A DNA stretch of 24,479 nt from Psammoneis japonica (GCA_008632985.1 QPGO01000183.1:124001-148479); one strand, 5' to 3'; counted from the stretch's first letter, positions 936 to 24,479 are shown. Numbers and translations are program-made. The notes: generated by a model from the sequence alone, not told the origin.

Positions 936-2107
936 TTGGGCGTAATGGACGCCGCCTTGACCCAATCAATGTCGGACATGCCGCGACCTGTTGGCTGATG
1001 AGGCGAAGGATGCACTCCCGAAACGACCGCGGCACAGCTTGCTGGCGGACGTGGCGGAGGAGGAACGCCATTCTCACAGCCGGACTCACAGCGTGCTTCT
1101 GAACTCGTCCATGAGTATGAAACTTGACGAAACGGAGATAATTCCTGTTGCTGTTCACGGGCGCCATGAGGTTGGTCTTTAGCCGCAGGATCTTTAGACT
1201 CCTCCTCGTTCCGTGTCGTACTGTCAAAGTATGATACTTGTCGGTGGCCGCGGGGTGGTAGTGCCGCAATATCAGGATCATACAGGTTGACAGGAGGCGT
1301 AGCATCGGACTTGGTACGTAGCTTGTGAGAATCGGGTGTCAAATTCTGCCCCTGCATTGGAACTTGCCGCGGAAGTGATGGCGAACTACTGCTAAGTGGA
1401 AGAGTTCGAGACTTGAATTCTTCTTGCTCTCCCCACAAGTAGGTTTCCAAAGTATGCCCAGTAGAGCCGTTCTTTTCTGGAAGACGCATTGTGAAGGTGT
1501 TTCCACGTTTGTTCTTGTTGGGAATATCCAATATTGATCCTGGAGGGGCACAATCGGCGAGAGAGGTGCGGTCCCACGCACAGACGGCTTGGTGCAAGAC
1601 GGTCGATGGCAGCGACGAGTTCTTCTCCGCTAGAGATTTCGATTGTTGCTCCTTGAGGAGAGCAATCCACCTGTCTAGATTCTGTATATGCTCACGATGT
1701 TGCTCCTCTTTCTGTTGAACACTTGTTTGAGCCTCGCCGTGTATGCGGAGTTGCATATCTTGACCTTGTTTTTGCCGTCTCGTGTCAACATACCGAGTGC
1801 CTCCAACACTACAATCGTGTCATAGAGCCGACGATTGGCGACACCCAGCTCGTTCGCCACGTCTGTAAGGTGCAAGCTCTCATCAAGCGACCTCTTCGCG
1901 ATTATAGTGTTGAATGAGTATGATTGAGGGGAACGGTTGTGTGAGATATCCATAAGCAAGCGTACACTCCCGTAAGAAATCTAAGATACGCATCTTGAGA
2001 ATCTCATAAAAGCGTTTCGACATGACGCTTAACGAAGAAGTTTCTGGACGTTTTGACGCTTTCCCCAAATGAAAAGCACCCTCCTTAAGCCTATGGTTGG
2101 CATGCAT
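1..2107 (-). pseudogene. E2F/DP-family winged-helix transcription factor-like gene with a long Pro/Ser repeat C-terminus; disrupted and running off the window start
   Basis: Exon 1 reads ETSSLSVMSKRFYEILK. Exon 2 reads RSLDESLHLTDVANELGVANRRLYDTIVVLEALGMLTRDGKNKVK, matching the E2F_TDP RRxYDxxxVLE motif. A coiled-coil-like EEQ..LDRWIALL follows in another frame. The predicted phase-0 intron (about 1993-1894) has a CTCAC branch point and AG acceptor, but its donor reads ATGCGT. Frameshifts occur near 1750, 730, 430 and 290. Confidence 0.75.
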
Positions 2108-2790
2108 GTCACTCCGCCGTGGGAGATCCGTGTTGGGGATTGCGAATACCGGTGCGAATCATCCAGCAGGGACCCACAAGCTTTCGCTTGATGATAAAGT
2201 TCTCGAGAGCAGATGAAAATCAAACTTTAAACCGTTTCTTTTGCATGCTCTTGGTGTGATGATTCAGTGCAGTCATAGTTTCGTCACTGCGATCTTGTTG
2301 TTGCGGTCATGGCGGCGGCAACAAGTTGAAAACATCAAAAGGCCCTTCACGATTTGCTGCTCTTGATGTAGACGAAAAATGTTGAAAACCGTGGAGACGC
2401 AGCAACAGACAGCCTCGAACGACGCCGCTCTGCTGCTGTGCTTCATCATGGTCAACACACCGCGTGCGTTGAATGTGTTTTCGTTTGAAACGTGTAGACT
2501 TCAGTACTCTTCTACGTGCATGTCGTACATAATTAGTAAATATCCAACATATATATTTGATATATTTATTGGCATATATTCATCCAACGGACATAATTTT
2601 TTCGATATTTACACTAAAGCTAATACTAACAAAAAAGGACATTTAATTTATTATCAGATCTAGGTTAGAGCATAACATGCGATCCAGCGAAAACTGCATG
2701 GCGACGCAATCTCCTGATCGTGTTTTTCTGTGCAGAGTCGTTGTTGCTGTTGCTGTTGTTGCTTGATTGTATCCAGGTGTCAGTACTACC

Positions 2791-3835
2791 ATGGTGGACA
2801 TTGCCAATAATATGCTGTTAAATGTGGGTGAGAATATGAATCATGCAGACGAGGATGAGGGCCAACAGCACCAACAACCCATGTTGTTTGAGTCCCTCAG
2901 CGACGCGGATGTAGACGACGCACGGAATGACACGCGTCAAGGTGACGACTCGTCGAGCATACCCTTTTGTGTTAAGGGCATGGGGGGGACGGAATGATTA
3001 TGTATATGGATGGTACGTTGTCTGAATAACAGTTTCGTCAGTACATCATCTTGTTTCTCTCTACAAACACAACTTGTCTTTGGAGTTTTTGAGTGTGATT
3101 CTCCGAATTTTTATATTCCAAACAGCTCGAGGTGCAATTCGATCTTTTATTCTCCCGCGTGTGCTCGTAAACTTATGGAGCTGGGGATGGATTTGTTGCA
3201 TATAGTGTCTCTGTTGAGCGATGTTTCTAAATGATTTGCTATTCTACCTCCTCTCACACACCTGTTGCACTTTTGGTTTATACGTGCTTTATAATTATAC
3301 AGGCTTTCGGTTATCGTTCAAGGGCAACCAACCATGTCTCAATTTATTCTTTCCCGGTTGGACTCTCGATTCTCGGGTCAAATTTAGTGGTGCTCTAGTT
3401 TTGGTATTTGCTCTGGCCATTATGACCGAGGGTATTGCCAAGTGGCGACATGTGCTCCACAATAAGAGGCGTCACAACAACATCAACAAGCGAATAAGCA
3501 GCACTCACACCAGCTCTCCACCACCACGAAGAATATTCATTACACTCTTGCACACACTCCAAGCCTTTTGTGGATACATTCTCATGTTGGTAACCATGAC
3601 CTTTTCCGTGGAGCTTTTAATGAGCGTGGTGCTTGGTTTGGGTGTGGGCTATGCCGTTTTTTACAATGACGATGATCACCACGTTACCACGAATCCGTGC
3701 TGTAGCTTTATGCAAAACGAACAAGAGGAACGTGTCGTTGAGAGTGATGATACTACGAGTCGAAATAGTGGTTTGAATCAAGGCGGAGACGCAGCATTTA
3801 CCATGCCTGACGGTGGTGGACTGGAGAATCTGTGA
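2791..3835 (+). CDS. Ctr-family (SLC31) copper transporter, 2 exons, frameshifted at a G7 run (2982-2988); pseudogene or assembly error
   Basis: Met-rich MIMYMDG|FRLSFKGNQPCLNLFFPGWTLDS is followed by TM1, then TM2 with MxxxM (MLVTM) and TM3 with GxxxG (GLGVG). Adding one G to the G7 run joins KGMGG to DGMIMYMDG. The intron at 3013-3302 restores the frame. Confidence 0.85.
3013..3302 (+). other. Spliceosomal intron of the Ctr gene (290 nt, phase 1)
   Basis: GTACGT donor at 3013, CTCAC-type branch point near 3253 and TACAG acceptor ending at 3302. Splicing gives G|GC (Gly) in MDGFRLS. Confidence 0.8.
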
Positions 3836-4425
3836 GGTTCCGCCTCAACTGTACACGGAACTCGTGGCTCGTTATTGATCCTCTCTCTAGAGACTATTGC
3901 AATAAAAATGTATTTTATGGTATGACTATTATATAGATGAAGCTCTAATATCATATTTGCTAGAATAATGACAATCACATTGTTTTAAAAGAGCTCCATC
4001 TCGTCGGTCGAAAAATTTCTTCGTACCCGTCGCTGTCGTCCAGTAGACGAAGCTAACTATTGTAGGTATATTTTTTCAAAGAACGGAAACAATGGTACCT
4101 TTTAGAGGATGTGTTTGAAGAAGCATTTGGGGTCTCGAATGTCGAAGGGTACAGGTATGCTCTTGTTGAAACAATGAGTAAGAAAAGGGGGAAAAGAGTC
4201 GTTTATAGAAGGAATGACGAAGGGCTGCATCGCGCCTACATCACTATATATTACATCTAAGAAATAGTGAATATGCTTTATTGTTTACTTTATGAATGAT
4301 AGGATAACTATGAATTAGAGCCGAAGTGTCCTTGACTTCAAACCTCATCGTTCGAGAGCGGCTAAAGCTCTACCCATATCCCCATTCCCCTACTCTAATC
4401 ACCTTTCGACAAACAGCCCATGTTT

Positions 4426-6066
4426 CTAGAGACCAGAGCCAAAGTTGAAGTGCAGAAAGGGTCGTCGCGCTACGTTGGCATCAGGCATGAGGCTCTCAGA
4501 CTCATTTTCGTCAATTGCACCAAAGTGCTTGGCAAGACGCTCGAACTCTTCCATGGCAGTCTTGTATCTGGTGCCGAGTCGCTCTCCAGCAGCAAGGATG
4601 CTTTCCAAGGCTCTCATCACCTTCTTGAGAATTTCAACGTCATTGACTCCTTGTACAGAGCAAATGGCTTCCATGCCTCCGAGGCGGACAAGCTCGTCGA
4701 TTTGTACATCGCTGCCACCGGTAAAAATGTTGATCAAGACACTAATGGCCTCCTTGCGAATACCCCATTCAGCCTCCTTTGCCAACTTTACAATCGATGA
4801 AAGCCCGCTTGAGTGGAAAAAAGGCAAGCAATTTGGTTTTGGGAACCAGCTGCGATGTTGGACATCATCCAACAAAAATCTTTTTTAACGTGCTTCTGTA
4901 GAACGTTTCTCTGTAGAAGGAATGAAAGAACAAGGAATGTGAGTGATACCTGTGTTAGCAATATTTCAAATACATGCATGGTGCCACAACCAATAATAAC
5001 ATACCTGGGGACAGTTGAGGATTCGCTCGCTGTAGTGGGTAATACCGGCATTCACCACAAGCTGCGCTTGGTCCTCGGTTCCCGCACAAATATTTCCAAG
5101 GCATCGTACAAGAGGCCTGATATGGGACGGCTCGATGACTTCCAATAGATTGATGAGAACATTGACGACATGAGGTTGGTCTTGTAGGAGGGCAGTAATA
5201 CACTCATGCCCTCCGTCCGACGCATACCTCATGGCCCAGATCGAATCACCCAGGCTTTCCTTGGTTTTGGGATTGGCAAGGACTTTGGCCAAACACGGAC
5301 CAGCCTCCTTGACGAATCGAACGTCGGGATGAGGATGGGCGCGTAGCAAGTTGCAAAAGGCCCAGATGGCAGTGTTGTAAAGAGTATCGTGATTGGGATC
5401 GTTGACATTCTCAACCACACCCGTCAACGCACCAAGTTTTAGCGCCTCGTCACGGAATTGGACCGAGTCGCCGGCCGCATTGCCGACACACCAAATGGCT
5501 AGCTCACGGATATTGGCTTTTTTGTGCCAAAGACACGTTACAACTCCTGGCAAGGCACCCGCCTGAATCGCAGCAGCCGTGTAAGCGGACGAGACGACAT
5601 GATTCAAGACCGAAAGCGTTTCAATCAACGGTTGCGGTTGATCGCCCAACTGGAGAAAGCTCTTCAACGTGACGAGAACCCCTGAATCGACAATGGCCTT
5701 GACAGGAGCATCCCTTTCCAAGGACATGTTTCGATGAACCATCTTGAGAGCTTCAAGTCTAAGCTTTGCATCCCCAGTGGTTTGAAGAAAAAGGATAATA
5801 TTATGGAGTTGTTTCGGCGTAAGAGGACGTGCATGGCTTCTGTTGTTGTTGATCGTGTTGGAAACGTTTGCCGTGGACGCACCGAGCGTGAGCTTGTTGG
5901 GACCAAAGCGACGCCTCGCCCAGCGCTCTCGCTTTTTGGTCTTTCGAATCTTGTGTACCAAGTCAAGACGACGGCGAAAACCATGCTCGTGATTGTAGGA
6001 GTAAATGCGGTCTGCAGCAGCAGGAGCGATAGAGAACAATCGTGTTGTGAGTGAATGATGTGGCAT
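4426..6066 (-). CDS. Importin-alpha-like ARM-repeat protein, 2 exons, 1-nt frameshift near 4805; possibly a degenerating paralogue
   Basis: A basic IBB-like N-terminus (RRRLDLVHKIRKTKKRERWARRR) is followed by ARM motifs AIWCVGNAAGDS, AIWAFCNLLR, VRCLGNICAG, CWMMSNIAAG and IRKEAISVLIN. The intron runs from 5004 to 4896 (or 4911). The frame changes at QAG/LSSIVKLAK. Confidence 0.88.
4896..5004 (-). other. Intron of the importin-alpha gene with two in-frame TTCTACAG acceptors (4911 and 4896)
   Basis: CAG|GTATGT donor, CTCAC branch point, and a duplicated acceptor 15 nt apart. Confidence 0.75.
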
Positions 6067-6810
6067 CAACCAAAACCTTATTCAACACAACAAGAACGAC
6101 GACAAGAAGACGTTTTTCAAAAACTTGATACACGCGAAACGTCAAAACGCAACGCACAACCACGCAACGCTCGTCCATTCTACTTACGGCTCAAGTTGTT
6201 CATGATGATAGTATGCTTTGCGATTTGAGCACAATAAACGTGTGTGTTTGTGTGTTGTGTTTCTTTATGACGGTAACGACAAGAAGTGTTGAGTGTTGGG
6301 TTCGATGTTTTCTGTTGTTGTTGGCAAAAAAAAACTGGCGAGTCCAGGGTTTCAAATTTTGCGTAGGAAATGTACCAATTTCTACGCGATTGCGGTTTAC
6401 TTAGAGGAGAAGTGAGATTTGAATTCCTTCATGTGTATATGTATATATGAACTGTCCAACGTGAATTGTAGGCATGTCTTTACATGCGATTTATTTGGGC
6501 TTCTCACAGCCGTTTGAGTTCCGCGCACGAGATTTTCGTCGCGTTTGTGCCTGTCTGCCGCCCGTCAGAAGTGCCGCCCTTTGGCACCAAACATCAATCA
6601 CGCAACACCATGCACCACGCACCACGTTGCCATCTTAAAATGGGTGCTCTGTGCTCTTCCATCCAAGAGAATGTTGCTTGCCATTGTGAGGGCAGGTGGC
6701 ATTGGATTTGATGCGGCAGAGTTCCTGCTGTGATGTGCAAACTCGGGAAAAGGCAAAAGGCTGCGGACGGTGCATCCGCAATCCAGCGTCCAGCACGTGC
6801 ATCACCAAAC

Positions 6811-7008
6811 ACCATCTGCCATCCACCATCCAGCATCTGCCATCCACCACCCCCATTATCTGCACCCGCTGCCAGCACCATCCGCCATCCACACCATCCA
6901 GCATCGTCTGCACCCACCATCCCCCGCCATCTGTCTTCCGGCACCCAACATCCAACATCCGCTGCCCACCAACACCACCTGCCATCCAGCATCTGCATCT
7001 GCCATCCA
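6811..7008 (+). repeat. Degenerate CCATCC/GCATCT short-unit tandem repeat (about 7-nt units)
   Basis: Runs such as ccatctgccatccaccatccagcatctgccatccacc, repeated with variation. Confidence 0.7.
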
Positions 7009-7219
7009 CGGCAACAAGAAACACTGCACAAAATTGGAGGTGGCGACATGACAAGCAATGGGAGTGAGGCAGCACAAATGAAGAGAAAATGCATCTCTCG
7101 TCCGACGCAACCAGGGTTGCGATGGCCACAACTTTGGCCCAACTTTCTCCAACTCCAAAATGGCCACCAGGTTTCAACATGAGGAGCAACTGCTTCACAC
7201 CAGACACTGATGAGAGGTG

Positions 7220-9720
7220 GATCAAAGCTGCCCACAGGACAAGTGGGGCACTCTCCAAAGAAAGGCACAAGTGTTCGCTCTGACAGTTGCGGGGAAGAAG
7301 AAACATGCCAACGCAGGCATGCCTGCCAAGTCAATTTCACTGTCTGGGTTGAGGGTGCCGTTGGAACTGTCGTTGTTGTCAGCAGCAGCATCAGGGGCAT
7401 TGTGGATGGCTGCGTGACAATGGGTGCTGAATTTGGCCAAGCTGTGGCACAGAAGGGCAACGAAGCGGCCTTCTGGAGAATCCACACCCACTCCACCCTG
7501 GAATGGACACCGGTCGTGCAAGGCAAGTGCACCATCACTCTCCAGGGGAGCTGGTCCACTCATGTCATGAAGCATGGCCAACTCAAAGCCAGGGCGCACA
7601 CTGTTGCCGGCATTGTTGCATCAACCAGAGGCAAAATCCTTGAGTTTTTTCCATGCATTGCTGGCATTGAGCGGCGTCTCGGGGTTGATGGGGTGAGCCG
7701 TCACCATCATTGTCACATTTTGATCCTGCCAGAGGGTGAGCCCTTTCTGTCAGGACCACACACTCTTGAAAGAATGACAAAGGAGCCAAGGGTTGAGGTG
7801 AAAATCTGATTGAGGTGGAGGCTGGGGGGTGCAAAGAGTCAGTGCGAACAATCGTGCCAAGTTTTCCTGACAACCACATTTCCGAAATGCAACAAGCCAA
7901 TTGTGAGCAGCTGCAGTCATCTGTGCCTCAAAGTGCAAGTGCCTGAGAATTCACAACTGGGGTGCCCAGGTTCTTGAAGCATTTCTTGTGAAAGGGCGGC
8001 ACCACTCTTGTTCCACGGCAAACAACAGAAATTGTGCCACATGGTCAGGTGGTCTTGAAGGGATTTCCACATCTGCTCCCAGTTGTCAGTGTCATTTCAA
8101 AGCTCAAGATTGCAGGATTCTTCTGGGTGAGATGCACGGCCAACATTTGTGCTTGCAGTTTTCTGTTGCTCAGAAATGTGGCTGGACTTTGTTGGTGGGT
8201 CATTCTTCCATGATGAATGATGGAATGACGCTGATGCAACAATGCCCCACATGCTTGGGGCAACATCCAATGGGTCACCTTGAGCTGCACTCCCGAAACA
8301 TCAGGATCTTCCTTGGTTGTCCATTTGTGGGAAATGAAGATTCATCCCAGGAGCGACGGATCTGTCCAAGGTGGGGTGGGAACTCCCCGAGCCCTCAACT
8401 TGGTGGCAACAAAAGTGGTCAACTTGGGTTCAATCACTGTGGAAAAGGGAAATGCTTGCAATCACTGCAGCGGCAATGACAGTGATGATGATGACAATGA
8501 ATGATTCGTGGACTTTGCAATGCAGGATGATTGGCTGAGATCACAAAACTGCAAAAAGTTGCAAATGGTGTTTGCACTGATGTTGCTCAGTGGGGGGGGG
8601 GGCCGTGCCATCCAACTGACTCCCATGTCGGCCACTGCACCTGGATCAAGGTCAATGCCAGTCAACTCATTGCCTTGTTTGGTGGGCCCTTCCATGTTGC
8701 TTGCAATCAAATGACTGTCTGGGATCACGGAGAGAAACCTGACATGTCCAAGGATTTGCAGACTTTCCCTGTGAACCCAAGCAGAGTTGTCAACAGACAA
8801 AAAAAACACAGACACCGATGGTGGTTGTCTAAATTGTCGGCACTCCTCTTTGCAATTGGCAAACCCAGCTTCTGTGATGGGTGTCATTTGGTGCACTGAT
8901 GCAAAGAAAGCCCAACCACAGCACATGCATCAGCTTTGATTCCACGCACATGGCCCTCCATGAAGCCCTCAACGGAGTGCCGCATCGACCCATGCAGCAT
9001 GTGTCCACCATTGCAACAACTTCCCATGTTTGTGGTGACTTTCAAGTGTCACACCAGGGGAACATTGTCCAGCATTTCCTTGCAAAGCACAGCCACATCA
9101 TGTTGCACTTGATTGGAGTTGGGATTCACTTTTTGAAAGAACAAGCCCTCATGGACCACAACTCTGGGAAGGTGAGGAGAGATTCCATTCTTGGTGCAAG
9201 CTCTTGTTGCAACCTTTGACAGCAGACAATGAAATGCCAGCCTGCCAGACATGACTGCAGAACCAGCCATTTTGTCCAAGACAATCAACACCGTCTCGTC
9301 ATCCATCGCCGGAGAATCAAAATGGTTCTTCACTTTGTGTGGCCGCCCCAGCACCTTGTTTCAGAGAATTTCCTGTTCTTCAACATCCGCAGTCTCACAG
9401 TGCTGATGTCAACTTTTTGTGACATCAGCTCCAAGCACAGCCAACATCTCTTTTCCTTTCTGAAGTGCCCTCAAATGGTCTCGCTCTTTGGACATTGAAA
9501 TGATGCCGGCAGAGAGTGGATGAGAGCATGTGGCCCTTGTCGTCCTTGAGTGTTCTTGCGTTGGCAAGCACCACATCAACAGCGCATGGAAAAACGAATC
9601 CATCCCTTTTCATCCATTTGCTTGTCATCATCTTCTTCTTCATCAGAGGTGTTTTTGGGTCTGTCATCAAAGTGCGATTCATCAGCCTGCTCTGGTGCTC
9701 AAAGCTTGCTCTCCCCAAGA
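7220..9720 (-). mobile_element. Possible highly decayed transposase-like coding relic (hAT-like, tentative)
   Basis: Fragmentary minus-strand frames include FELAMLHDMSG..LESDGALAL, loosely recalling the ELA..D.G....LEGDG.L segment of some hAT-related transposases. No terminal inverted repeats were identified. Confidence 0.2.
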
Positions 9721-10003
9721 ACCCTCCTTCTTTTTTTGCCTCTCAGGAGCAGTTGCTCCAGCTGCTCTTTTGCCACACGACTGTGTTCTAGCCACTGGCT
9801 CTAGCTGGCTGCCACTGCTGCTCTGGCTTAGAGCACTGCAGAGTGCAGCAATGTGCCACGGCAGTTTTCAGATTCCTAAAAATGAATTTCACGACTGGCC
9901 TCCACGTGGATCTCCAAAATGAGGCAAGCCTGCCTTTCCGTTTCAACGGCAGTCATCATTTTTAAATTAATTTAGCCTCGCCGGAGCTGTCATCCAATGC
10001 ATC

Positions 10004-10836
10004 GTGCATCACTCTTCTCTCATTTCTTGTTTTGTTTCTTGCACATGCAGTGTGTGGAACACCTTCCACGATGATGGTGCTTCATGTCCACATCATGGTC
10101 TCGAATCCCACAGGCTGCCAGAGGGTCCATTTGTTCAGGAACGACACAACGTCGGTCGACAATGCTTGCACAGCAGTGGCATTTCGAATCTCAAGATGGC
10201 AGGGGTAAATCAAGACAGCAACGGTGCTTCTGACAATGAAGTTGAAGTCACTCAAGTCATCCATCCCATTGATGGGGACACCGAGTGACACAATGATGAT
10301 TCGAGCAAGGATTCCGACGACGACATTCTTGATGTCTGCTCCAACAACAATGGCAGGATTGAGCATGACAACGATGAAGTCATTCAAGCCCACCATCACA
10401 ACAATGGTGATGTTGATCACGGCAATTGTGGTTTGAACAAGGAGTCCGATGATGACGTTCTTCATGTCTGCTCCAACAATGATGGCAGCACCACCCAAAT
10501 GCACTCTAGCCACAACCGCGGATCTGAGCAAGAGAGCAACGATTCTGATGTGAGACCGCAAGAAGCAGAAGAAGAACTTGTGAACTGCAATGATGATGCT
10601 GAGTTCACTGGGACAAATCACGGGTGGCACGAAACTTGGGAATCAAAGTGCCAGCATTTGGTGCAATTCAAGAGGAGGTGCGGTCATTTGCGAATCCATT
10701 GTGAGCACAACAGGAAGGTGTGCAACTGGATTTGCTGTCACGTGAAGGAACACTGAGAGTGTTCTGGCAGGAGGAAAGCGCGTGGTGAAAAGAAGCTGGG
10801 GAAGTCACACGTCGTCTAGAGCAACTTGGGCCATTT
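10004..10836 (+). pseudogene. Relic of a helicase-associated (HA, PF03457-like) domain protein with an acidic N-terminal region
   Basis: WHETWESKCQHLVQFKRRCGHLRIHCEHNRKVCNWI is followed, after a frameshift, by RRLEQLG. This matches the HA pattern W...Y..L..FK...GH..VP......L..WV...R..LE.LG. There is an internal duplication of about 50 bp (about 10307-10356 and 10439-10488). Confidence 0.7.
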
Positions 10837-11264
10837 GAAACAACAAGCATGTCAAGACAAATGGGCAGAGCCACATCAACTGCATCATGTGGCATCAACA
10901 GTGATGCCACATTTGCAAGAAAGGATGCCGCAACCAGGAAAATGCTCGTCTTTGCAACCAATTCTCTGCGCATTGCCAAGCTCATGCTGAAGCTAGATTT
11001 GCCTGTGAGGCAGAAGGCCGTCGTAATCTAAAGTCCATGGAGTGGTGTCTTTCTTGTGCTTGCAGCCCATTTGAAGCTCTTTGTGCTCTGATCAACTGTT
11101 GATCAGTTGTTGAGAACAAAGCTCTTGATGGCAATTGTGCTTGGCGAAGCTTTTTCCAGCCTTCAAGGGTGACGGTGAACGTGACACAAACTCAAGCTTG
11201 TTGGACGAGTTCTTTCAGAATGGCGAAATCAACGCACGTGACATGAAGCTGAAGCTTTCTTAAA

Positions 11265-11395
11265 GGCAAGACTGCCGCCATGTTCAACACATGCCGTTGT
11301 GCTTGATGCCAACAAGGAGCATTTTACAGCATGTGTGGCAAGGCTGCCGCTGCGTTTGACACCTGCCGTTGCGCTTGATGCCAATGAGGAGCATT
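11265..11395 (+). repeat. Two-copy tandem duplication, period 72 bp
   Basis: ggcaagactgccgcc...tgccgttgtgcttgatgccaacaaggagcatt and ggcaaggctgccgct...tgccgttgcgcttgatgccaatgaggagcatt. Confidence 0.75.
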
Positions 11396-11694
11396 CCGCA
11401 TCATGCATGCATGTGCACATTTTTTGCAGTGGAAGCAAGTGACAAATGATGAAAAGAGATGCCATGATGCACAGCATGAAACCAAAAACCACACGATCTT
11501 GGTTGCAGGGCACCGGCAGCTGGGCAAGTCTCCGAATTGCTCAGAACCGGCATTGGCGGAAATGGGAACAAAACCAAGCCCATGGCATTTTGAAATGCAA
11601 TTGTCAGGTTTTCCACGAAGATTCAAAAAAGTTTCACCTGAGTTTTTAGCCGCCACGCAGTTCTGCGTAGAACCACACGAGAGCCATTGCCACG

Positions 11695-14316
11695 ATGATT
11701 GGCGACAAACCACACGACGCTCTCACTTTTGAACTTGGAGAAGCTTGCAACACTCACCATTTGTCTTGTCTCACAAAAGCAATCATGGACCTCTTCCTGT
11801 TCATTTTCATTGCTCTCTTTGCCACAGCCATCGTTGCTGTTGTGGTTTTGATCTCTTTGATCTGCAAGCTTGTCATCAACACCATGCTTGCCGTCTTGGT
11901 CGTGTTGAAGCAAAACTCAATGCTTTCCAATGTTGCCAAGATTCAAGCCCATCCATTCCAAGAGACCTTGTTGCTGACTGCAATTGACGACGTCAAGCAC
12001 ATGTGCTTCTTTTCTCCCAAGGCATGGCTCGAATTGCACGTCAAGAAACTCTGTCGCCTTGCCGCCAAAACCTGCAAAGACCACATCGCCAAGCTTCCGA
12101 CGCTCGTCAATGAGTCATTTGCTTGAGGCCTCAAGAACTTCCACATCAAGATCAAGAAGTTTGTCAAGTTGGACGTGCACATCAACAATGCCGTCATCGC
12201 CAGTGCTGCAAGCTGTGCACCGGCTGGGTTGCTCCCAGTTGTTGATGGCGTGGAGTTTGCAATCAAGTTGACAAAGAACAAGCAATTTCAAAAGATTCAG
12301 TCAGAAATTGCCAATGTGCTGAAAAAACTCTTCACATGATGCAGCAACATTGAAGTGAGCTTCCAGTTTGAGCACTGCAACAAGCTTTGCTCTCTGTTGG
12401 TTGATGTCGTGTTGAGATTGGTGCTCTAACGCAAGAATTCCTGGGCGCCAAGTGACCTGTCATGATGCCTCCATGCTGCATTTGAGACAAGTCCAGAGGT
12501 TGTTGATCTCGTGCCATCAATTCCTCCTTCGACCGTGCCCGCTGCTCAAGCCGTCAAAGAATTCAGCGCCACTCCATCAGACATTGCGAGTGCATCAGAT
12601 GAGCTTGTGGTTGCAACATCAGAAAGCATTGTCTCCTTGGGCACACCTGCTGTGGCTCCGACAGAAAATGGCAGTCATGTGCCCCTGACTCTTTCGTCGG
12701 ATGCACCAAGTGTGTGTCTGCAAGAAGGGGCTGAAGATGTTCCATCGACGCCCACTTCGACAATGCCCACTGCTCAAGCCGGCAGCGAACCCAGCACTGT
12801 TCCGTCAGAATTTGCCAGTCCTTCAGACGAACCTGTGGCCACTTTGTCAGAAGCCATTGACCATGTGCCATTGACCTCTCTGCCGCTGTTGTCATTGGAG
12901 CCAACTGGGCTGACATGAAAGCACTCAAAGAAAACAAAAGTGACAAAGAACGGTTGCAGAGTCAACCCAAAGACAGCCTGTTCTTCCAAGTTGCTGGCGG
13001 CCCAGATGCAGGAGAACAAGAAGAAACAAACAGCAAAGCATCAACCCGAGTGCCGCAAAAGGACAAGGGCAGCAAGACAAAAAGCACACGGGGCAGTCCC
13101 TTCGAAGATGCTGAGAAACATTGCATTTGAAAGGGCGACTCCCTCAGATGCACCTGACGTGGTTTCGTCCGAAACAGTTGACGATCAAATTCCGTCCATT
13201 CTGTCATTGACCGTGTCCGCAGATCTGGACGGCGATCCGCCAAGCGACGCTCTTTCAGAAGCTGAAATCTTGCTGGGTGCACCTGCTGTGGCTCCAACGG
13301 AAGACGTCAGCCATGTGACACCGACTCCTTTGCATGCTCCGTTGAATGCACCCAGTGTGGTTTCACAAAAAGAAAGTGATGCTGTCCCATCAACAACTCC
13401 TCTGACAGCATCCGCAGCCACAGCCAGACCATGCACTGTCAAGCGACGCAAGGTGTTGAAAAAGGAGCTGCGCTGTGAACAACAACAAGCTTTCAAATGC
13501 ATCAAAAGACATCATCAAGCTGGATTGCTTGCCTTGTCAAAGAACATTCGCGGGGGGTTCATTGACATGAGCAGGATGAAACCAAATGTCGCAGCTTCGT
13601 CCTTCCAAGCTTTGCTTGGAATCTGTTCAGATGTTTCACAAAACCACAAGGAGAGAAAGAAAATGCGAGTGGTTTGTCACAATTGACGCATGTCTCCTGA
13701 GTCCAATGCGTTGAAGAAGCAACTTGATGCATTCAAGAAGAAATGCCAGAAGAGATTTGACACCCGCAAAATTCAACAAGATGCCAGCCGCAGAAAGAAT
13801 GTTGAATCCAATCGACAGTGCAAACCCTGAATGAAATCCTTCGATTTGCAAAACACCACGTTGCTTCGAGCAATTGTGTTTGCATGGCAGCATGTCATCC
13901 CTCCGTCAGAAGCACCTGCAGCAGAAAAACGAGAAATGTTTGGAAGAATGCACACTGTGAGACATGCACAACCATGTGATGAAAGCAGCCTTTTCACCAC
14001 CAGACTTGCCATTTTTTGCTCGCCTTTGCCATTCAGCACAATCGAAAAAGAATCACACTGGGTTGATGACAATGCAGCATCACACGAGTGTGCCGTGGTC
14101 TCTTTAAGACCATTGACTGCACCACCCCTTTTTGTCATGGCCATTCACTGTCCCAGCCCAAACCCAAAGCTCGAATGCTGGCTCATGAGAACAAAGGTGC
14201 AAGTTGCTCAATGTCTTGTGTCCTCTTCTGTCTCGAATTTTCAATTGGCTCAGTGCAGCAAGTGTCAAACGCCACCGGTTTCAATTTCCCACACCCCGGG
14301 CTCAGTCACTTGCTGA
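11695..14316 (+). pseudogene. Long single-frame coding relic (about 870 codons) of unknown protein with internal Pro/Ser/Ala/Glu repeats
   Basis: ORFs starting at 11695, 12511, 12940 and 13831 share one frame, separated only by point stops (12124, 12337, 12427, 12463, 12916, 13684, 13828). In-frame internal repeats include STVPAAQA../STMPTAQA.. and LGTPAVAPTENGSHV/LGAPAVAPTEDVSHV. Confidence 0.55.
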
Positions 14317-16800
14317 AGCACATTCCTGCTGCGCCAGGTGGAAGATGTCATTCGTGCCCCGAAATGTCACATTGCATGCGTGCCTGGAATTGAATCTTGG
14401 TCAGACAGTCCATTGCGGATGGCCCCTGTTTGCAACTCTGACCATTGATTGCAAGCCAGGCGGGAAACGAGACCTTGGTCAAATTGGCAGCTGCACTTCT
14501 TCACAATGTGCTGGCCAGTCATGATGGGTGCCATCTCAAAGATGACATGTGCAATGGTGGTGCAGAGCGCTCCACAAACAATGGCACCCTGGCCCACCAC
14601 CATTGAAAAGACACTGGGTGCCATTTCGAGTTTGCCAGTTTCAGTCGCTTTGGAGGAGACGTGAGCGGCAAATCGAAAGGACGTGAGTGGCTTCAAGCCC
14701 AAAAACTTGCAAACCACAGAACAACCCACCAAAAAGAGCCGGAGTCAGCTTGAGCCATGACAAAGAAGAGACAGCCCCACATCGCAGTCTTGCCCTTGCA
14801 GAAATGCACCAAGCCGGCATCACAATCAGCTGCCACATCAATGTCGAAAGCCACGAGTCCGGCGACCTTGTTGGCCGCGACGATTCAGAAGACTCGAGAG
14901 AGGATGAGGACAAATGCCGTCTCCGTGAAGAAGAGCGTGCTTTGTCGGAACGATTTGGAGAAGTTGGCAAAGCCAGCAGCAAAAAGCAAAAGCAAACGGA
15001 CAGGAAATCGAAGCCGAGTGTGCCAAGAAGCAAGCAAGAAACCTCGTCCAATGTTGTCACTGGCACACTTGTGTGGTTCCAATGGAGCGGCGCGAATCAA
15101 GAATGAATTCTCCAGAACCCTCTTTACACCTTGGCTCGCTCACTTGACGGCTCTTTTTCCCAGATGGGTTGAGCTTGCTTGGTGAGTTTCAAGGCTGCTT
15201 CCATGTCAGCCTCACAGCCGCGGGGAACCTTTCCAAAAATGGATCAATCCGCGGGATTCTCCACGTCAATGGCAACAGAATCAGGCAGCAATGCACTTGT
15301 TGCCGCTCCATTGACTGAGCCTCTTCTTTCCTTCAGTGGAACCAGGCTTCATTGATGAATGACATCCCACCAAGTCATGCAGGCTGCTGCCATCTCGAGA
15401 CCCTGCCCAAAATGAGTGTTGAAGAAATGTTTTGGAAAGAGTCAAGGCAATGAAGACACGGAGAGACAAAGCACACATTGTGCACTCATGCCAGATTCCA
15501 GTGAATCAATTGTCATTGCTTGAGGAATTGCACATGTGCAAGGATGGCAGAAACTGCCGCCGAATGAGAGTCTTGAAAGCAGAGATTGTCGACAAGATCG
15601 CCGGAGACGAGTCGGTCTCCGTGTGGCAACTTTGCATGCCGGCCACCACGGCACCAAAATGCAGAAAACATCAAGCAAATGGCACGGTGTTGATTTCAGA
15701 AAGACATCCGAGAGCCAACGGATCGGCACATCAAGCTTTTGCTTGAATTCAAACCAACAAACAACTCCAAACGCCCGAAAGCCGCCTAAAATTGGACAAA
15801 GGCCCAGCTCCTGGTGCCGGGAAGAAAGCCAGTCATGCTGCACACGAACATCCATGTCCGCTAAAATGGCAAAAAAGAGGTGAGAGAATCTTGTGTGCGG
15901 CTGACTCTCAAAATGATTGCAGCTGGGATGCTGCACCCCTTCATGAGCGGGCCGCTGCAAATGGCGGTGTTGCTCTGCGGCGGGGCATTGCAGATGCATG
16001 AGAACAACTGACTGCTCACACAGGACATCATCTCATGCATCTCAGTCTCATCCATCTGTCTCACCCGTGCTCAACCTGAATGAGGAACATGCAATGTGGC
16101 GAGTCATCAACCAGATCCAAACAGTGTCGCAAAGCACTGTTGCACAGTCTCACCTGTGGCTCCAAGTGTCACAACTGGAGCAAGCAGAGAGTGGTGTCAT
16201 GCACCCCAAATGAAAAGAAATTGAGGCAGCCATCATGGAATCTTGCAACAAAAGGGTGTCGCTGCCAGTGCAGCAGCCAAGTCCACGATGTGCCGCGACT
16301 GTCAAAGCTGCACTTCACCCCCCTCTTCAAAGTGCGTGTGTCAGCGGCGTTTTCGGATCAATTCAGTGTCCTCTTTGGCCCTGTTGTTGCCCTCAACTTT
16401 CTGGTCATTCTCCTCATCGCTCAACACTGCAAGCAAATCAAGGCAAGCCATGTTTCCGTCAATGTCAACCAAGGACAACAAGCACACATTTCAAGCGAGA
16501 TTGCTTCTCTTCCATGAACATCACACACTTCTTTTTGCGCTGCCCTCGTGCACCACAAATTTTTGGAATGCCGTGCCTTGGATGCCGCCACGAATTCAGC
16601 ATGCTGCTTGGAAGCAAAGGTTGAAATACCCATTGCGATCTCCATGCTGTGTACCGATCCATTGCTTCTATTTACTCGACTCGTACAATGCCCCACCAGA
16701 TCGGAGGTCGGAGGTCGGAGGGGTTCTACGTGATTGGCGCACGTGACTATCGCGCAAACGTTCAGCATTTCAAAGTATCCAACCTGAATATAATCAATGC

Positions 16801-17002
16801 GTGTCGAATGCATCGTAATGTGTCCTTAAAGCACGTATACATTCATTGATTATCGCGTGACGAATGCATCGTTTTTCGTGACGAATGCATCGCAATGTGT
16901 TATTAAAGACCGGACACATTCATTGATTTCGCGTGACGAATGCATCGCAATATATTTATACAGAACGAATAACGCATTAGTTTTGCTTGTGAGAATGCAT
17001 CG
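16801..17002 (+). repeat. Array of five GTGACGAATGCATCG motifs, mostly 55-56 bp apart
   Basis: Motif starts at 16801, 16857, 16878, 16933 and 16989. The spacers are related to each other (aatgtgt..ttaaag..acattcattgatt..cgc). Confidence 0.85.
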
Positions 17003-17597
17003 TTTTTTCAGTTCATTTTCTGCGTAGAATCTACGTACGCATGTGGTTCAAGCCATCCACTGTCGCACAATTCCCCCGCCGCCCATCAGCGCAGCAACCC
17101 AACAACAACAAGAACACTCGCTCCGCGCTTCATCGGCTCTTTATTCAAATGTCATGCATGCTGCAAGCTGCAACATACGACAGCGACTCGGGTTCCTCGG
17201 CTGTCTACGTCTCGAGTCAATCGAGTCTTACAACTGGTGAGCGGAGTCAATTGTGTCGTAATCGAAAGGCCCATCGAAGTCCAATGGACAGGGTCTTCTT
17301 GATTCAGTGAATGCCGAGTTCAACAATCTCTTTCCTCTTCCTCCAATGCATCCATCTGAAGAAGAGCTGGCGAACTTGTCGGAGCAGGAAAAGGATGCGA
17401 TGATCACAAGCGTCATGAAAGTGGCGGAATTGCAGGGTCATTTTTTTGTTTTTTGAGGGGCTGTTGAATGACACATCTGTGCAGCGTGCGATTCGACATC
17501 GGCCGCAGCCACACACCATGTATTGTATGTCTTGTGTAAGAGCTCGTTCTTCCGACACTTCCTATTTTCCCTATCCTTGATTAAATATCTGTTCAAG

Positions 17598-18569
17598 GTG
17601 TGGCCCTGAAAGTGGTGAAGAATAGACAAGCTTATGCACAACAAGCAGCTGTGGAGATTGATGTCTTTCGGGTATTGAGTAAAGACGAGGATGGCTTGGC
17701 CACCAACTTTCAAGCAAACGATCGCAAGATGGTGCACCTGCAATCATACAGTACGCATCAGAATCGCCTTTGCTTGGTGTTTTAATTGTTGGTGATGAAT
17801 TATTACGAGGTTTTCAATCAGCAGCAGTTCCGAGGGTTACCGTTGACAATGGTTCGGTCGCTGCTCGTGCGAGCAATGGACGGCGTGCAGGAATTGTGTT
17901 AGCGATCGATTGTTAATTGCAGTCTGAAGCCTGAGAATATCTCGCTTACCGAGAAGTAGTCTGGTTTAAGCAATATCAAGTTAATCAATTTCGGTACGGC
18001 TTGCCTTGAAGGACACACGGCTCATACGTATGTTCAATCTCGATTTCACCACAGCCTGGTTGTTCTTCTACTCTAGTGCTACCGTACAATTCCGCAATTT
18101 GACATGTGGTCCTTTGACGCGTTGCCGCCGAACTGTTCCTCGGATTGTCTCTACTACCTGGTGCTTATGAGCACGATCAGCTGAGACGACTTTGTGAAAT
18201 GATTGGACCCACTCCAGACAAGGTGATTGGCGAAGGGTACGTGTCATTTTTTGTATTTGATACTTTTATTGAACGGACGCATGTGCTCATTTATTGTTTA
18301 TCGCTGCTATAGTCTTTGTTCAGTGCTAATAATCGTCCATGTACTTTGCAAAATTTATTTCCAAGTCGGAAACTATTACTTCAACTCCGATGCAGCCACA
18401 AACCAGCACAGCTAGCATAGAGAAGCCATCATCTTCGAAGACACAGAGAGAATATCTCGATGGCATCCCAGAAGAAGAAATCCGAAAGATATCCGGGCTA
18501 CGGAAGCTAGAGAAGCAACCCACCAATCGATACTTCAAGAGAACAAAGCTTTTGAGAATACATGTGTAG
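17598..18569 (+). pseudogene. YAK1: YAK1/DYRK-family protein kinase pseudogene fragment
   Basis: Motifs VALKVVKNRQAYAQQAAVEI, LCLVF*LL, QFRGLPL, NCSLKPENI (HCDLKPEN decayed), IKLINFGTAC (DFG decayed), YVQSRFH, DMWS and AAELFLGL..PGAYEHDQL. Several in-frame stops and frameshifts are present, and a GTACGT intron donor lies at 18237. Confidence 0.9.
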
Positions 18570-19199
18570 CTACAACTAGAGGTGTTTACTATGAACTATA
18601 AAGCTCTCGTGTTGTCCTTGAAACAAATTTGCCAGTTCAAACAAAACCAAGAAGGGTGCGTACACAAATCCTTGACCACTCGGCAGATGTATCTTGAACG
18701 ACCTTTACGCTCTTTCGGACTGACTATCGGTAATACCATTTTCCGCTCTTTTGGCCACTCGCCGCATGCTACCACCGCCGGCACTGGTGTACTTGATAGC
18801 TTCGAATCCCAGTTTTCAAAAGCGTAAAGAGAGATATTTTAATTCATAATTTGTTGGCTAATTTTTTGTTTTGTTTTCATAATTTTGATCTGTAGGCCTA
18901 ATACTCTACAGTGCACTCTGTAAGCAATCCCTCTTGAGCCCCAGTAACCCATACCTCACACCCGCGATATTGAATCCAACAATCCGTGAGCTTCTACCTT
19001 GCACGCGAAAAGTCTGTCCAATGTTTGTTTCTCGTTTTCTCATTCTCAGCATGACACGTGCTTACGGAAAGCAAGCTGACATCTGAAATGACCATAATGT
19101 CCATACGACAATGCAGGTCTGGACGAAAAATAAGATACAATCATGGACAAACTTTTCCACCCGCAATAGCAAAAAACCCAGACCCAGTCAGAACACTCG

Positions 19200-22390: not shown

Positions 22391-23130
22391 GATGCGGTAC
22401 CTAGCAGCCCAGCTCCGAGTGCCACACCGACAGTTATGACATTGACACCCCCAGCACCTCTGACGAGTGCTCCATCAAGCAGTGTTGATCCAAGTGAAGC
22501 GCCGTGACATACAACAAGTACAAGCCCTGCTCCCAGTTTGGCACCAAGCAATTCTCCCAGCGCAAGTCCAGCACCAAGCTCAACTCCAAGTCAAGAACCA
22601 TCAGCAAGCCCGGCTCCGAGCAACACACCAACTCACACGAACCGACCACCAAGTCGCAGTCCTGCACCGAGTGAGACTCCCAGTGCATCTCCAAGCAGCA
22701 GTCCAGTGCCAAGTGATTTGCTGAGTGAGTTGCCCAGTGCAAGTGCTGCCCCAAGTTCTGTGCTGAGCAACGCTCCCAGTGCAAGTCCAGCACCGAGTGA
22801 CGCATCAACACACACAACTCTGCCTCCAAGTTTGAGTCCGGCACCAAGCGAGGCACCCAGTGTGGCACCAAGTGGCAGCCCGGCACCAAGTGATTTGCCA
22901 AGTGAATTGCCTGTGCCGAGCAATGCTCCCAGCGCAAGATGCCATCTCAAGCTCCCAGTTTGAGTTCAGCACCAAGCACTTCTCCCAGCATGGCTCCAAG
23001 TGCAGGGTTCGCTCCGTCCGCCTGCCCAGCTCCCAGTGAATTCCCAAGCACAAGTCCCAGTTCCAGCCACACCTTAAGTCGTGCTCCAAACAGCATGCCA
23101 AGCCGCAGCCCACCCCAAGTGACACTCCCA
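22391..23130 (+). pseudogene. Pro/Ser/Thr-rich xAPSxxPS mucin-like repeat coding segment, disrupted
   Basis: Many SPAPS/APS/PSASP units. There is an in-frame TGA at 22505 and a frameshift near 22940. Confidence 0.7.
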
Positions 23131-24479
23131 GTGGCGTGCCATCTAAAAGTCCTGGATGCTCGCAATTTGGGCTGGATGGATTCCTTGGCATGGGAGCATG
23201 GGCTTCTCCGAGTGGATGTGTTTGAGCAGACAGTGGAAACAGAAGGATTTGCAAGTCCGGCACTCCATGTCAGTGCTGTCAGGGAGGAGACAATTTGTGC
23301 GCTGATGGGATCAGAGGCAAAGTTCAGGTGCGGCAAAGTGCAGAGCATCTTCTCTGCTTCCAACAGTGTGCCAACTTCTGTGTTGCACATCCTGTCCAGG
23401 CAATCATCAAGAGATGCCCTGGAAACTGGATGGATCATGTGCCTCGCACAACTTCTTCCAACACCGTGCAGCAACTGTGACAGCTGCATGTGGCTCTTGC
23501 TCAAGCCCATGGCATTGGCACACTCAACAATTGACCAGACAACTTCATCGGATGAACCTTGCATCGCAATCTCATCAACTGTGACATCTTGTCTGCTGGA
23601 AGGGTGTTGGTCATGCCTTCTTCTGCTGATGAGCACAGGAAAAGACAGAGATGCAACTGAGGAGACAGATGAATTGTGAGACAAATGGTCAGCAATTTGT
23701 CTTTGTCCCAGGTTGCAAATGATGTTTGGGATTTGAAGCTGACCTTTTGAATCTTCCAAGTGGCACCCCAGCAGTGTCCCACAGCACATCTCCTGTGTGC
23801 AAGATGGACAGACTTGTTGCTCTGGGCCACCTGCCTGTGGCCAGCACTGCCACTTTGGCTCAAGCCTTTGCCCACAGATTTGGTCCAAACCTGTGCAGCA
23901 GCTTTTGCCCATGGGAGTTCCACACAGGCAAGGCATGACCCAACTGGCCATTAAGCAGTTGACACATCTTGCATGAAGCAGCGGCTGTGCAGAACTGCAC
24001 AGTGCCAAATGCAGCCATTGTCACACAGGGACTCAAGCTCCATGTGTCTTGCTGTCTTGCACATGCAAGTTGCGCGTGCAGAATTTTTTCACAATCTCTG
24101 CAACACCAGACTCACATGTTGCTGCCTGAGTGCTTGGACCCCCCCATTCCTGCACAGTTTTGCTGCAACACTGCCACCTCAAGTGCAAAAATGCCAGCCC
24201 AGCTGGCTGCCACCACAGAATGTTGCTCTGCCTGCTCTCTGAGGCTGTTCAGCCAACAGGGGAGCAGACAGCAGAGATCGAGAGCAGAAATTGCAAAAAT
24301 GTTGCTCATGCACCAGTTGAGAGTGGGCACAAACATTTTTCAAAATTGCCGCTTCTCATTGAGTGTGGTGCACCCATTGTGCATGTTGGCACAGGTGCCA
24401 AGATGACAAGATTTCCAAGATTGCACCTGTTTGACACAAATGGTTGCAGATGCTGCGTTTCATGATTGACTGCAGAGAG
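22521..24479. other. Second TpA-erased, TG/CA-rich block, running off the window end
   Basis: Only three TpA found by eye (about 23075 TTAA, 23144 CTAA, 23952 TTAA). CpG also looks sparse, and the ORFs lack Tyr. Confidence 0.9.

Follow-up and report, generated by a model that had tools for sequence, protein, structure and literature searches.

Which process strips nearly every TpA from a long stretch of diatom DNA, and what decides which sites survive? This question is raised by a locus of Psammoneis japonica, analysed here as one window of 24,479 nucleotides (QPGO01000183.1:124001-148479). Known genome-defence mutators such as RIP and AID/APOBEC act on cytosine and, to our knowledge, deamination of adenine in genomic DNA has been described chiefly for engineered editors. 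An initial annotation of the window proposed that surviving TpA sites (hereafter TA) are mostly YTAR and that one strand-symmetric rule, most simply 5'-TAY>TGY, explains this.

TA-erased blocks and their borders

Two-state segmentation delimited two TA-erased blocks. The first retains 25 TA in 10,134 bp, compared with 531 in 12,385 bp of flanking DNA; the depletion initially placed at 6630-15870 is confirmed, while its limits had to be moved outwards. The features of the window are as follows (strand given where assigned).

1675..6081: spared host genes of the left flank, three genes
1675-1980, minus strand: E2F/DP winged-helix ORF, left flank, spared
3218-3835, plus strand: Ctr copper transporter, left flank, spared
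to 6081, minus strand: armadillo-repeat gene, which we take to be importin-alpha-like, left flank, spared
6493..16626: TA-erased block 1, 25 TA left, CpG down ~40%, TG/CA up
6772..7009: satellite-like unit rich in CCATC, with matches to TA-free arrays on contigs C99, C3, C26, C29 and C101
8749..9790, minus strand: decayed host-gene copy, with an 821-aa ORF intact in its TA-rich homolog (L007)
9789..9973: seven TA survivors close together, all YTAR, where two decayed repeats meet
9863..11447, plus strand: decayed copy of a low-copy element with TA-rich copies L004-L006 and L009
11511..14125, plus strand: decayed copy of another repeat, no Pfam family; among its homologs, L013/L014 are depleted and L003/L008 are so in part
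14471..15318: two short segments with homology to L019/L024
16347..17162: repeat spanning the right edge of block 1, in a single continuous alignment to L015
17588..18262, plus strand: kinase-like pseudogene (motifs presumably those of a kinase) with in-frame stops, TA normal (31 in 675 bp)
22403..23154, plus strand: coding sequence with Ser/Pro-rich tandem repeats, from a multi-copy gene family (L047-L056), spanning the left edge of block 2
22520..24479: TA-erased block 2, extending to the end of the contig, with YTAR at all 3 survivors

Block 1 is made up of decayed repeats and gene copies in a mosaic arrangement. In the TA-rich copies of the element at 9863..11447, both an intact HA-domain ORF of 525 aa and a SWIM-finger ORF are present, and the element is probably transposon-like. 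Nine frames from within or bordering the blocks gave no Pfam match, and no RNA dataset was listed as containing the block. The depleted domains are sharply bounded, their edges cutting through repeats and homology: in the L015 alignment, none of the 10 homolog TAs up to 16569 is kept, and most are kept from 16627. TpA loss is restricted to bounded regions of foreign or putatively silent DNA, and host genes are spared. The kinase-like pseudogene keeps normal TA, and being dead is therefore insufficient for targeting.

Surviving sites are biased towards YTAR

Between 6630 and 15870, the 25 remaining TA comprise 19 YTAR, 3 YTAY, 3 RTAR and no RTAY, which reproduces the earlier hand count (19 YTAR, six with one non-YTAR flank, zero RTAY); all eight example positions listed with that count are YTAR, and so are all three survivors at 22520-24479, as had been claimed. 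The chance level, initially put at about a quarter, was an overestimate, since YTAR makes up only 71/533 TA (13%) in the window flanks and 293/1973 (15%) in normal segments of the rest of the contig. Normal DNA in both is thus YTAR-poor, and the survivor bias is stronger than first claimed (block survivors vs flanks, Fisher p = 1.2 × 10−11).

Comparing NTAN distributions, a check set beforehand, showed that depleted and normal DNA are clearly unequal. On the same contig (C184:4001-124000), depleted segments hold 168 YTAR, 113 mixed and 9 RTAY sites (n = 290 TA) and normal segments 293, 1067 and 613 (n = 1973). Across 60 loci on other contigs, TA-poor 500-bp windows hold 238, 246 and 59 (n = 543) and comparison windows 959, 3151 and 2038 (n = 6148). 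Homolog TAs were likewise kept in the window at 4/22 YTAR, 3/90 mixed and 0/55 RTAY sites. The survivors of block 1 are neither fully independent nor all old: 7 of the 25 cluster within 9789-9973, and about 12 of the 19 with an aligned homolog are also TA in a homolog, while others (e.g., 10994, 11029, 12427 and 14105) are not.

If each event changed the adenine of a TpA to guanine on a single strand, with events spread over many generations, a TA would be lost once either adenine was hit and its survival would be the product of two strand survivals. YTAR reads as TAR on both strands, so it would last longest. A hand calculation on contig counts led us to reject a steady state of TA creation and removal behind the survivor pattern, since the observed GTAA retention (0.114) agrees with the product of strand survivals (~0.11) and not with an additive expectation (~0.045).

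Direction and timing of the change

As read from sequence comparison, the direction of change is TA>TG/CA, because intact ORFs sit in the TA-rich homologs; aligning 8749..9790 with its intact-ORF homolog fixes both TA>TG/CA and CG>TG/CA. We show that the mutation acts after insertion; between paired LTRs, 414 of 648 differences are TA/TG. Some young copies that are almost identical have largely escaped, and loss is patchy among copies 95-98% identical.

These observations bear on a group of explanations that we regard as scarcely credible, i.e., hypermutation at the RNA or reverse-transcription level (ADAR-type editing of transposon RNA), stop-codon selection, base composition or an assembly artefact. 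YTA and TAR are indeed stop-codon words and the genome holds ADAR/ADAT1-fold genes, but TA is the main difference between paired LTRs, both strands are equally hit, the targets include non-retro sequences and a host-gene copy, and normal DNA is YTAR-poor. TAG is cold here, yet UAG is the ADAR2 hot spot according to the available text of PMC10661471. Retrotransposition of ADAR-edited RNA would depart from the present pattern in three respects: it predicts changes on one strand only, LTRs identical at insertion and UAG as hot spot, against both strands hit, differing paired LTRs and a cold TAG. Contigs from a public run, possibly the assembly's own sample, contain the TA-free block (2,464 bp, 4 differences), which argues against an assembly artefact.

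A 3' pyrimidine promotes loss of the adenine

Survivor counts alone could not separate TAY>TGY from RTA>RTG; mixed sites can. We fitted a competing-risk model to 728 TA sites (9,465 site-copies) in 52 Copia copies of four families, with site bootstrap intervals. Eight of 60 fetched Copia loci were left out (L074-L079 and L100 outside the four families, L097 rearranged), as were 462 of 9,927 site-copies that were overlapping TATA. Relative to +1 A, rates were 3.33 [2.77-4.85] for +1 C, 3.24 [2.52-4.91] for +1 T and 1.43 [1.16-1.92] for +1 G, with intervals that correct only partly for the shared ancestry of the copies (median TG/CA concordance 0.63-0.72, max 0.86). Majority polarisation, which the site model replaced, gave only a ~2x bias and understates it because hot sites are mis-polarised.

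At mixed Copia sites, the TAY adenine was lost 1455 times and the TAR adenine 542 times (253 vs 71 sites), and the 3'-pyrimidine preference appeared in each of the four families and on both strands. Within the window, whose saturated blocks alone carry little per-strand signal, the corresponding losses were 47 vs 29 (p = 0.05), and 39 vs 23 in a count that took in flank positions. Summed over four non-Copia pairs with light mutation, losses were 35/407 TAY and 6/291 TAR adenines, and the Copia-fitted rates predict the retention of 10 tetramers on C184 (Spearman 0.96). The proposed rule 5'-TAY>TGY is therefore supported by direct test, about three-fold, and its description as a preference rather than an absolute rule also held (+1 C or T ~3x and +1 G 1.4x, relative to +1 A). 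The 3' pyrimidine of the suggested trinucleotide stands; a three-base motif is too narrow, since A at -2 or -3 boosts the rate ~1.5-2x and A at +2 lowers it to ~0.6x. These effects at -2, -3 and +2 partly mirror one another across the duplex.

The preference of A>G for a 3' pyrimidine, for which a spectrum check had been called, is present at TA and in rare non-TA changes. Off-target singletons in heavily hit windows number 103/25,150 for VAY and 38/27,513 for VAR (p = 1.6 × 10−9), a bias absent in lightly hit windows. Per 1000, AAY is hit 5.7, CAY 4.0 and GAY 3.1 times (AAY vs GAY p = 0.016, AAY vs CAY p = 0.15), all far below TAY, CAY reaching a small percentage of it.

All these context counts would equally fit a lesion on thymine, in which the T of 5'-RTA is modified in silent chromatin and later read as C, because RTA>RCA and TAY>TGY are the identical base-pair change and no transcriptional strand bias tells thymine from adenine. 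Candidate lesions include oxidation to 5-hydroxymethyl- or 5-formyluracil; oxidised thymines, however, mispair at low rates only, and we know of no thymine lesion with such strict TpA transition specificity. We consider this origin unlikely.

Spectrum, strands and CpG decay

The changes are almost only transitions, with 2,299 TA>TG against 32 TA transversions, and double changes are rare (9 TA>CG vs 3,660 TG/CA). TA is hit at 6-35%, compared with at most 1.2% for other adenines (AA 0.1-1.2%). Both strands are equally affected (sense/antisense 1.06 [0.94-1.22]), and strand concordance between neighbouring hits does not exceed that of permuted data (290/537 pairs at ≤10 bp vs 289.6 permuted); this lack of coordination led us to reject processive single-strand deamination. 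UV TA photoproducts are TpA-specific and mutate the adenine, yielding A>T transversions according to the available text of PMC7709870, unlike the pattern here (TA>TT 23 vs TA>TG 2,299).

As TA loss climbs from 3% to 84%, CG>TG/CA climbs from 0.83% to 3.07%, while RG>RA stays at 0.5%. This co-location could point to a Pol eta-type error-prone polymerase inserting G opposite T at WA in short patches, during T:G mismatch repair after methyl-CpG deamination. The available part of PMC4686820, on the non-canonical AID signature, describes mutations linked to Pol eta at WA motifs, with an A to C/G signature. Adenine mutations at TA and, more weakly, at AA resemble that signature, AAY is the leading off-target, and TA with a CG within 4 bases is slightly more often mutated (905/1828 vs 1419/3207). 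However, the signature also has A>C and clustering, whereas transversions are near zero here, AA is hit far less than TA, strand coordination at ≤10 bp is lacking and TA loss (84%) far exceeds CpG loss (3%). We therefore hold this polymerase to be quite improbable.

In the same alignments, CpG decay shows a 3'-pyrimidine flank effect of ~1.3-2x, so a flank bias could arise without a sequence-reading enzyme, or through uneven repair. Of the initial suggestion of an enzymatic process rather than compositional drift, the rejection of drift holds and an enzyme is likely, though unproven from flank bias alone. A process in two steps would fit the flank effect of CpG decay, the single uncoordinated hits on both strands and the partly mirrored effects at -2, -3 and +2: TpA adenines would be marked (e.g., N6-methylated) or would escape repair in heterochromatin, and their deamination, whether spontaneous or weakly catalysed, would be fixed as inosine repair fails there, the TAY bias reflecting stacking or repair. 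Rates tens of times above those of other adenines in the domain would nonetheless require a TpA-specific step, and in Bigelowiella natans, judging from the available text of a preprint (Mettrop et al., bioRxiv 10.64898/2026.01.13.699255), the process operated in 11 of 15 lines and not in the other 4, which looks regulated. This route seems rather improbable to us.

A probable deaminase acting on silent chromatin

The best reading, which we consider probable, is a chromatin-targeted DNA adenine deaminase. A DNA-level mutator would work on silenced chromatin domains of the diatom, converting dA to dI, which replication would read as G; it might be a zinc deaminase of the TadA/ADAT2 or ADAT1/ADAR fold, recruited to CG-methylated heterochromatin (methylation being suggested by CpG decay), and would serve genome defence in the direction opposite to RIP. 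In a model diatom, TEs are marked by methylation at CG, according to the available part of PMC9998398.

Candidate adenine deaminase genes are present in the genome as ordinary single- or low-copy genes, and no chromatin-reader domain was seen in their scanned frames. Two TadA/ADAT2-type genes (L122, L125) have HxE and PCxxC motifs, with a putative activity on DNA. Besides ADAT2, one candidate editor is a second ADAT1/ADAR-fold deaminase on contig C79 with intact catalytic motifs, whose relatives occur in centric and pennate diatoms and have no dsRNA-binding domain on record. It is conceivable, though doubtful, that diatoms possess a natural dedicated DNA adenine editor common to Rhizaria, drawn to CG-methylated silent chromatin, nucleating at transposon 5' ends, spreading to sharp borders and reading A-A-T-[A]-Y-(not A), as a RIP-like defence causing A:T>G:C.

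RIP in ascomycetes produces dense dinucleotide-specific transitions in repeats, post-insertion and on both strands, and makes TpA from CpA. The process here shares the former traits but runs in the opposite direction, with intact ORFs in the TA-rich copies, and its extent is not set by duplicated homology (an edge inside one alignment, patchy loss in 95-98% identical copies). As described in the available text of PMC10188366, the TadA-derived ABE7.10 favours 5'-YAY, with 5' C as well as T favoured and 5' A disfavoured; for ABE8e editors, the available part of one benchmark gives GCA as the upstream motif (PMC11702641). Like ABE7.10, which acts via inosine, the process here causes A:T>G:C, as pure A>G with a 3' pyrimidine favoured. 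The match is partial, because TadA-derived editors are engineered, Cas9-guided on displaced single strands and accept 5' C, whereas here the 5' T is near-absolute and AAY is the top off-target.

TpA hypermutation is already known from one preprint, in integrated NCLDV and virophage DNA of B. natans (bioRxiv 10.64898/2026.01.13.699255). Its available text reports the TpA transition seen live, at ~6 × 10−7 per site per generation (raised ~1000-fold), with 11/15 lines active and 4 inactive, and proposes an adenine deaminase; flanking context and diatoms do not come up in its main text. On that account, both systems show A>G/T>C almost only at TpA, on both strands, in silent foreign-derived regions (here putatively silent) and in clusters poor in TpA and rich in TpG/CpA. 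B. natans belongs to another supergroup, and its targets are viral, unlike the Copia elements, other repeats, satellite and dead host-gene copies hit here, with near-complete erasure coupled to CpG decay. The copy-to-copy variation in TA loss is compatible with activity in some lines only.

Breadth and implications

Five metagenome loci, drawn from 65 pattern matches and related to a single Copia RT, showed no erasure (rho TA 0.37-0.75, YTAR 4-21% of TA), a neutral result given their small number and unassigned hosts; no viral contig related to this RT was found. Our literature search found no publication joining TpA A-to-G hypermutation of transposons or heterochromatin with diatoms, no 'TpA depletion' wording in the publications examined, and no study joining ADAR/ADAT1 deaminase-domain phylogeny with stramenopiles or diatoms; the available parts of PMC9399415 and PMC9973308 contain nothing on deaminase context.

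The motif (+1 Y ~3x, A at -2/-3 ~1.5-2x, A at +2 ~0.6x, off-target VAY) offers an assay read-out for expressed candidates, and its comparison with the B. natans mutations could decide on a common origin. This fingerprint narrows the search for an enzyme that mutates adenine in DNA, and since about two thirds of LTR-LTR differences stem from one process, the finding bears on the dating of diatom transposons.

Surviving TA sites

By recount, 25 TA sites survive in 6630-15870 (19 YTAR, 3 YTAY, 3 RTAR and 0 RTAY), as the initial annotation had stated, and its claim that the block 2 survivors are all YTAR also held (3/3). Its chance level of about one quarter YTAR has to be replaced by the flank value of 71 among 533 TA (13%), against which the survivors in 6630-15870 show a clear YTAR excess (Fisher p = 1.2e-11). 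In a two-state segmentation, block 1 spans 6493-16626, and block 2 starts at 22520 and runs to the contig end. On both strands, ATA/TAT occurred once inside the blocks and 336 times outside, GTA/TAC 5 and 303 times, CTA/TAG 21 and 201 times, and TAA/TTA 29 and 224 times; CG-containing trinucleotides were reduced to 0.45-0.77 times their frequency outside, whereas TGCA rose 2.7-fold.

Because survivors are bunched (7 lie in 9789-9973) and partly new or ambiguous (among 19 with an aligned homolog, about 12 are also TA there and the remainder are new or ambiguous), we sought replication outside the window. Across a further 120 kb of contig C184 (4001-124000), depleted segments held 168 YTAR, 113 mixed (one TAY and one TAR adenine) and 9 RTAY sites (n = 290) vs 293, 1067 and 613 in normal segments (n = 1973). 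At 60 loci on other contigs, TA-poor 500-bp windows held 238, 246 and 59 (n = 543) vs 959, 3151 and 2038 in the remaining windows (n = 6148). Neither in the window nor in the replicates did depleted DNA share the NTAN distribution of its surroundings, and the survivor observation is confirmed.

Composition of the blocks and direction of change

The window forms the end of C184 in a 91 Mb eukaryote assembly; where its genes have named relatives, these are diatoms. Its flanks include:

E2F/DP, ordinary flank gene
Ctr, ordinary flank gene
armadillo repeat, ordinary flank gene
17588-18262, right flank, dead gene, kinase-like by its motifs, interrupted by in-frame stops yet retaining a normal number of TA

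Block 1 is a patchwork of decayed copies of sequences present elsewhere in the genome. For two of these, a TA-rich homolog retains an intact frame (821 aa at L007, 525 aa at L006), whereas the window copies are split into short frames; this settles the direction of change in the window as TA>TG/CA and CG>TG/CA. Over 6,681 covered block positions, 167 homolog TAs had identical flanks; the window kept 4/22 YTAR, 3/90 mixed and 0/55 RTAY, so that YTAR is depleted too, a preference and not an absolute rule, as proposed. Recovery of TA-free sequence (6823-9286, 4 differences) in contigs of one public DNA run, which may be of the same sample, argues against assembly error. Among the 23 block 1 differences in 40 listed rows of 287, 16 were CG vs TG/CA, 2 made TA and 0 removed TA, so CpG decay continues to turn over in block 1.

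Positions 22936-24479 are 96% identical to L046, a locus on contig C148 that is equally TA-free. A CCATC-rich unit at 6772-7009 has matches in long, TA-free tandem arrays spread over several contigs, and the summed depth of public-run contigs aligned there is about 40x that of its neighbours.

Strand-resolved context of A>G changes

As survivor counts cannot show which TA adenine is mutated, we aligned Copia copies and counted changes: 60 loci were taken from at least 150 RT matches, and 52 copies in four families were aligned (94-99% identity). A>G affected 6-35% of TA adenines and at most 1.2% of other adenines, with 32 TA transversions vs 2,299 TA>TG. A competing-risk model with local exposure (728 sites, 9,465 site-copies; intervals from 100 site bootstraps) gave rates for the mutated adenine's 3' neighbour, relative to A, of 3.33 (2.77-4.85) for C, 3.24 (2.52-4.91) for T and 1.43 (1.16-1.92) for G, estimates that come from copies sharing ancestry (median TG/CA concordance 0.63-0.72) and are limited by coding selection that operated before insertion. 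C and T exceeded A and G in each of the four families, and likewise on either strand. Model-free, mixed sites showed 1455 TAY-adenine vs 542 TAR-adenine losses (253 sites TAY-led, 71 TAR-led, 24 ties), and four lightly mutated non-Copia pairs gave summed losses of 35/407 at TAY and 6/291 at TAR. The proposed 5'-TAY>TGY preference is thus borne out.

The motif extends beyond three bases. With A as the reference, the other bases gave 0.53-0.72 at position -2, 0.44-0.69 at -3 and 1.5-1.8 at +2, terms that may partly be duplex-level effects. Copia-fitted rates predicted the retention of ten strand-folded NTAN tetramers on C184 (Spearman 0.96, ATAT entered as half a count). Singleton A>G at non-TA adenines in heavily hit windows numbered 103/25,150 before pyrimidine vs 38/27,513 before purine (p = 1.6e-9), compared with 34/19,058 vs 30/21,479 in lightly hit windows (p = 0.38); this off-target class separately confirms the 3' pyrimidine rule.

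Mode of action and extent of the domains

TA vs TG/CA accounts for 414/648 differences between paired LTRs (58 pairs), and non-retro sequences are also mutated; the process acts post-insertion, at the DNA level. Strands are mutated equally (sense/antisense ratio 1.06, 0.94-1.22), strand sharing between adjacent changes does not exceed that in permuted data, and 298/399 sites mutated in at least 4 copies show both TG and CA; the changes are single and uncoordinated. A second adenine change is rare after the first (9 TA>CG vs 3,660 TG/CA): a site is dead once one adenine has changed.

Extent is governed by domain, not homology. A single alignment to the homologous locus L015 spans the right edge of block 1, and copies of Copia family F1 lose TA most heavily towards the 5' end with a reach that differs from copy to copy, a gradient biased by the choice of copies with intact RT, in which selection shields the 3' part. 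The F1 peak (L060-L073) lies in the 5' LTR/gag region, a pattern resembling the spread of a mutagenic domain from the promoter end. Family F2 (L080-L099) is TA-poor elsewhere, yet most copies retain a TA-rich stretch (30-44 TA per 500 bp) at about 500-1500, a short way in from the 5' end. The edge at 16569-16627, which shortly precedes three copies of a 52-bp repeat (16800-16983), has a counterpart at about the same position in the paralogous copy L020; either the two share a duplication or the border is set by sequence. Positions 19115-21287 and L039:1-2180 on C184 are a recent 2.2-kb duplication (98.3% identical), and both are TA-normal: being duplicated is not in itself enough to set off TA loss.

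TA loss rising from 3% to 84% was accompanied by CG>TG/CA rising from 0.83% to 3.07%, with RG>RA constant at 0.5%. We infer that the domains are CG-methylated heterochromatin; CG methylation is reported to mark TEs in Phaeodactylum (PMC9998398).

Possible mechanism and candidate enzymes

Adenine deamination is a fairly probable source, because the transitions are pure A:T>G:C and strictly TpA-centred; in sequence, a thymine lesion at RTA would look the same. The TadA-derived editor ABE7.10 reportedly favours 5'-YAY (PMC10188366), which agrees with the 3' rule but disagrees with the near-absolute 5' T and with AAY off-target changes here, and another benchmark gives a GCA motif for ABE8e editors (PMC11702641). 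The reported ADAR2 hot spot, UAG (PMC10661471), is by contrast a cold context here. Pol eta-type mutagenesis, described as A to C/G at WA (PMC4686820), does not fit near-pure transitions at TpA, nor does the UV TA photoproduct, reported to yield A>T (PMC7709870), fit A>G. The trinucleotide bias had been read as enzymatic; the TAY preference was measured, but bias alone is no proof of an enzyme, since in the Copia data a 3' pyrimidine on the G strand likewise goes with faster CpG decay. The initial interpretation is otherwise supported.

The genome has nine PF00383 matches, including one TadA-like and one ADAT2-like gene (labels reflecting our reading of motifs), and two PF02137 loci, on contigs C40 and C79. 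The C40 locus has relatives annotated as tRNA adenosine deaminase 1. The other locus is:

L130/L131, G000:C79, another deaminase of the ADAT1/ADAR fold, separate from the ADAT1-like C40 gene and diatom-conserved

The two hit lists have zero sequences in common, and the C79 relatives form a separate group (24/240 proteins, quick tree, support 100). Both centric and pennate diatoms have them, with PF02137 as the only domain, and 119/120 retain the three catalytic motifs; the nearest Atlas cluster of the C79 protein is broadly eukaryotic. By its sequence this deaminase would be a candidate enzyme, as a lead only. Elsewhere, L124:313-1785 (-) encodes, in a single frame, a fusion of a zinc-deaminase domain with a 2OG-Fe(II) oxygenase.

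Relation to known systems

The closest known case comes from Bigelowiella natans, in which integrated viruses undergo TpA hypermutation (bioRxiv 10.64898/2026.01.13.699255); the main text of that preprint contains neither flanking-context analysis nor diatoms, and its Table S2 is directly relevant to context. RIP is alike in purpose; identity with it was rejected, as its defining tests failed here. Our literature searches found no publication on TpA hypermutation in diatoms. The phenomenon is of a barely described kind, to which we add direct strand-resolved rates, a wider motif, an off-target class and the finding that hits on the two strands are uncoordinated.
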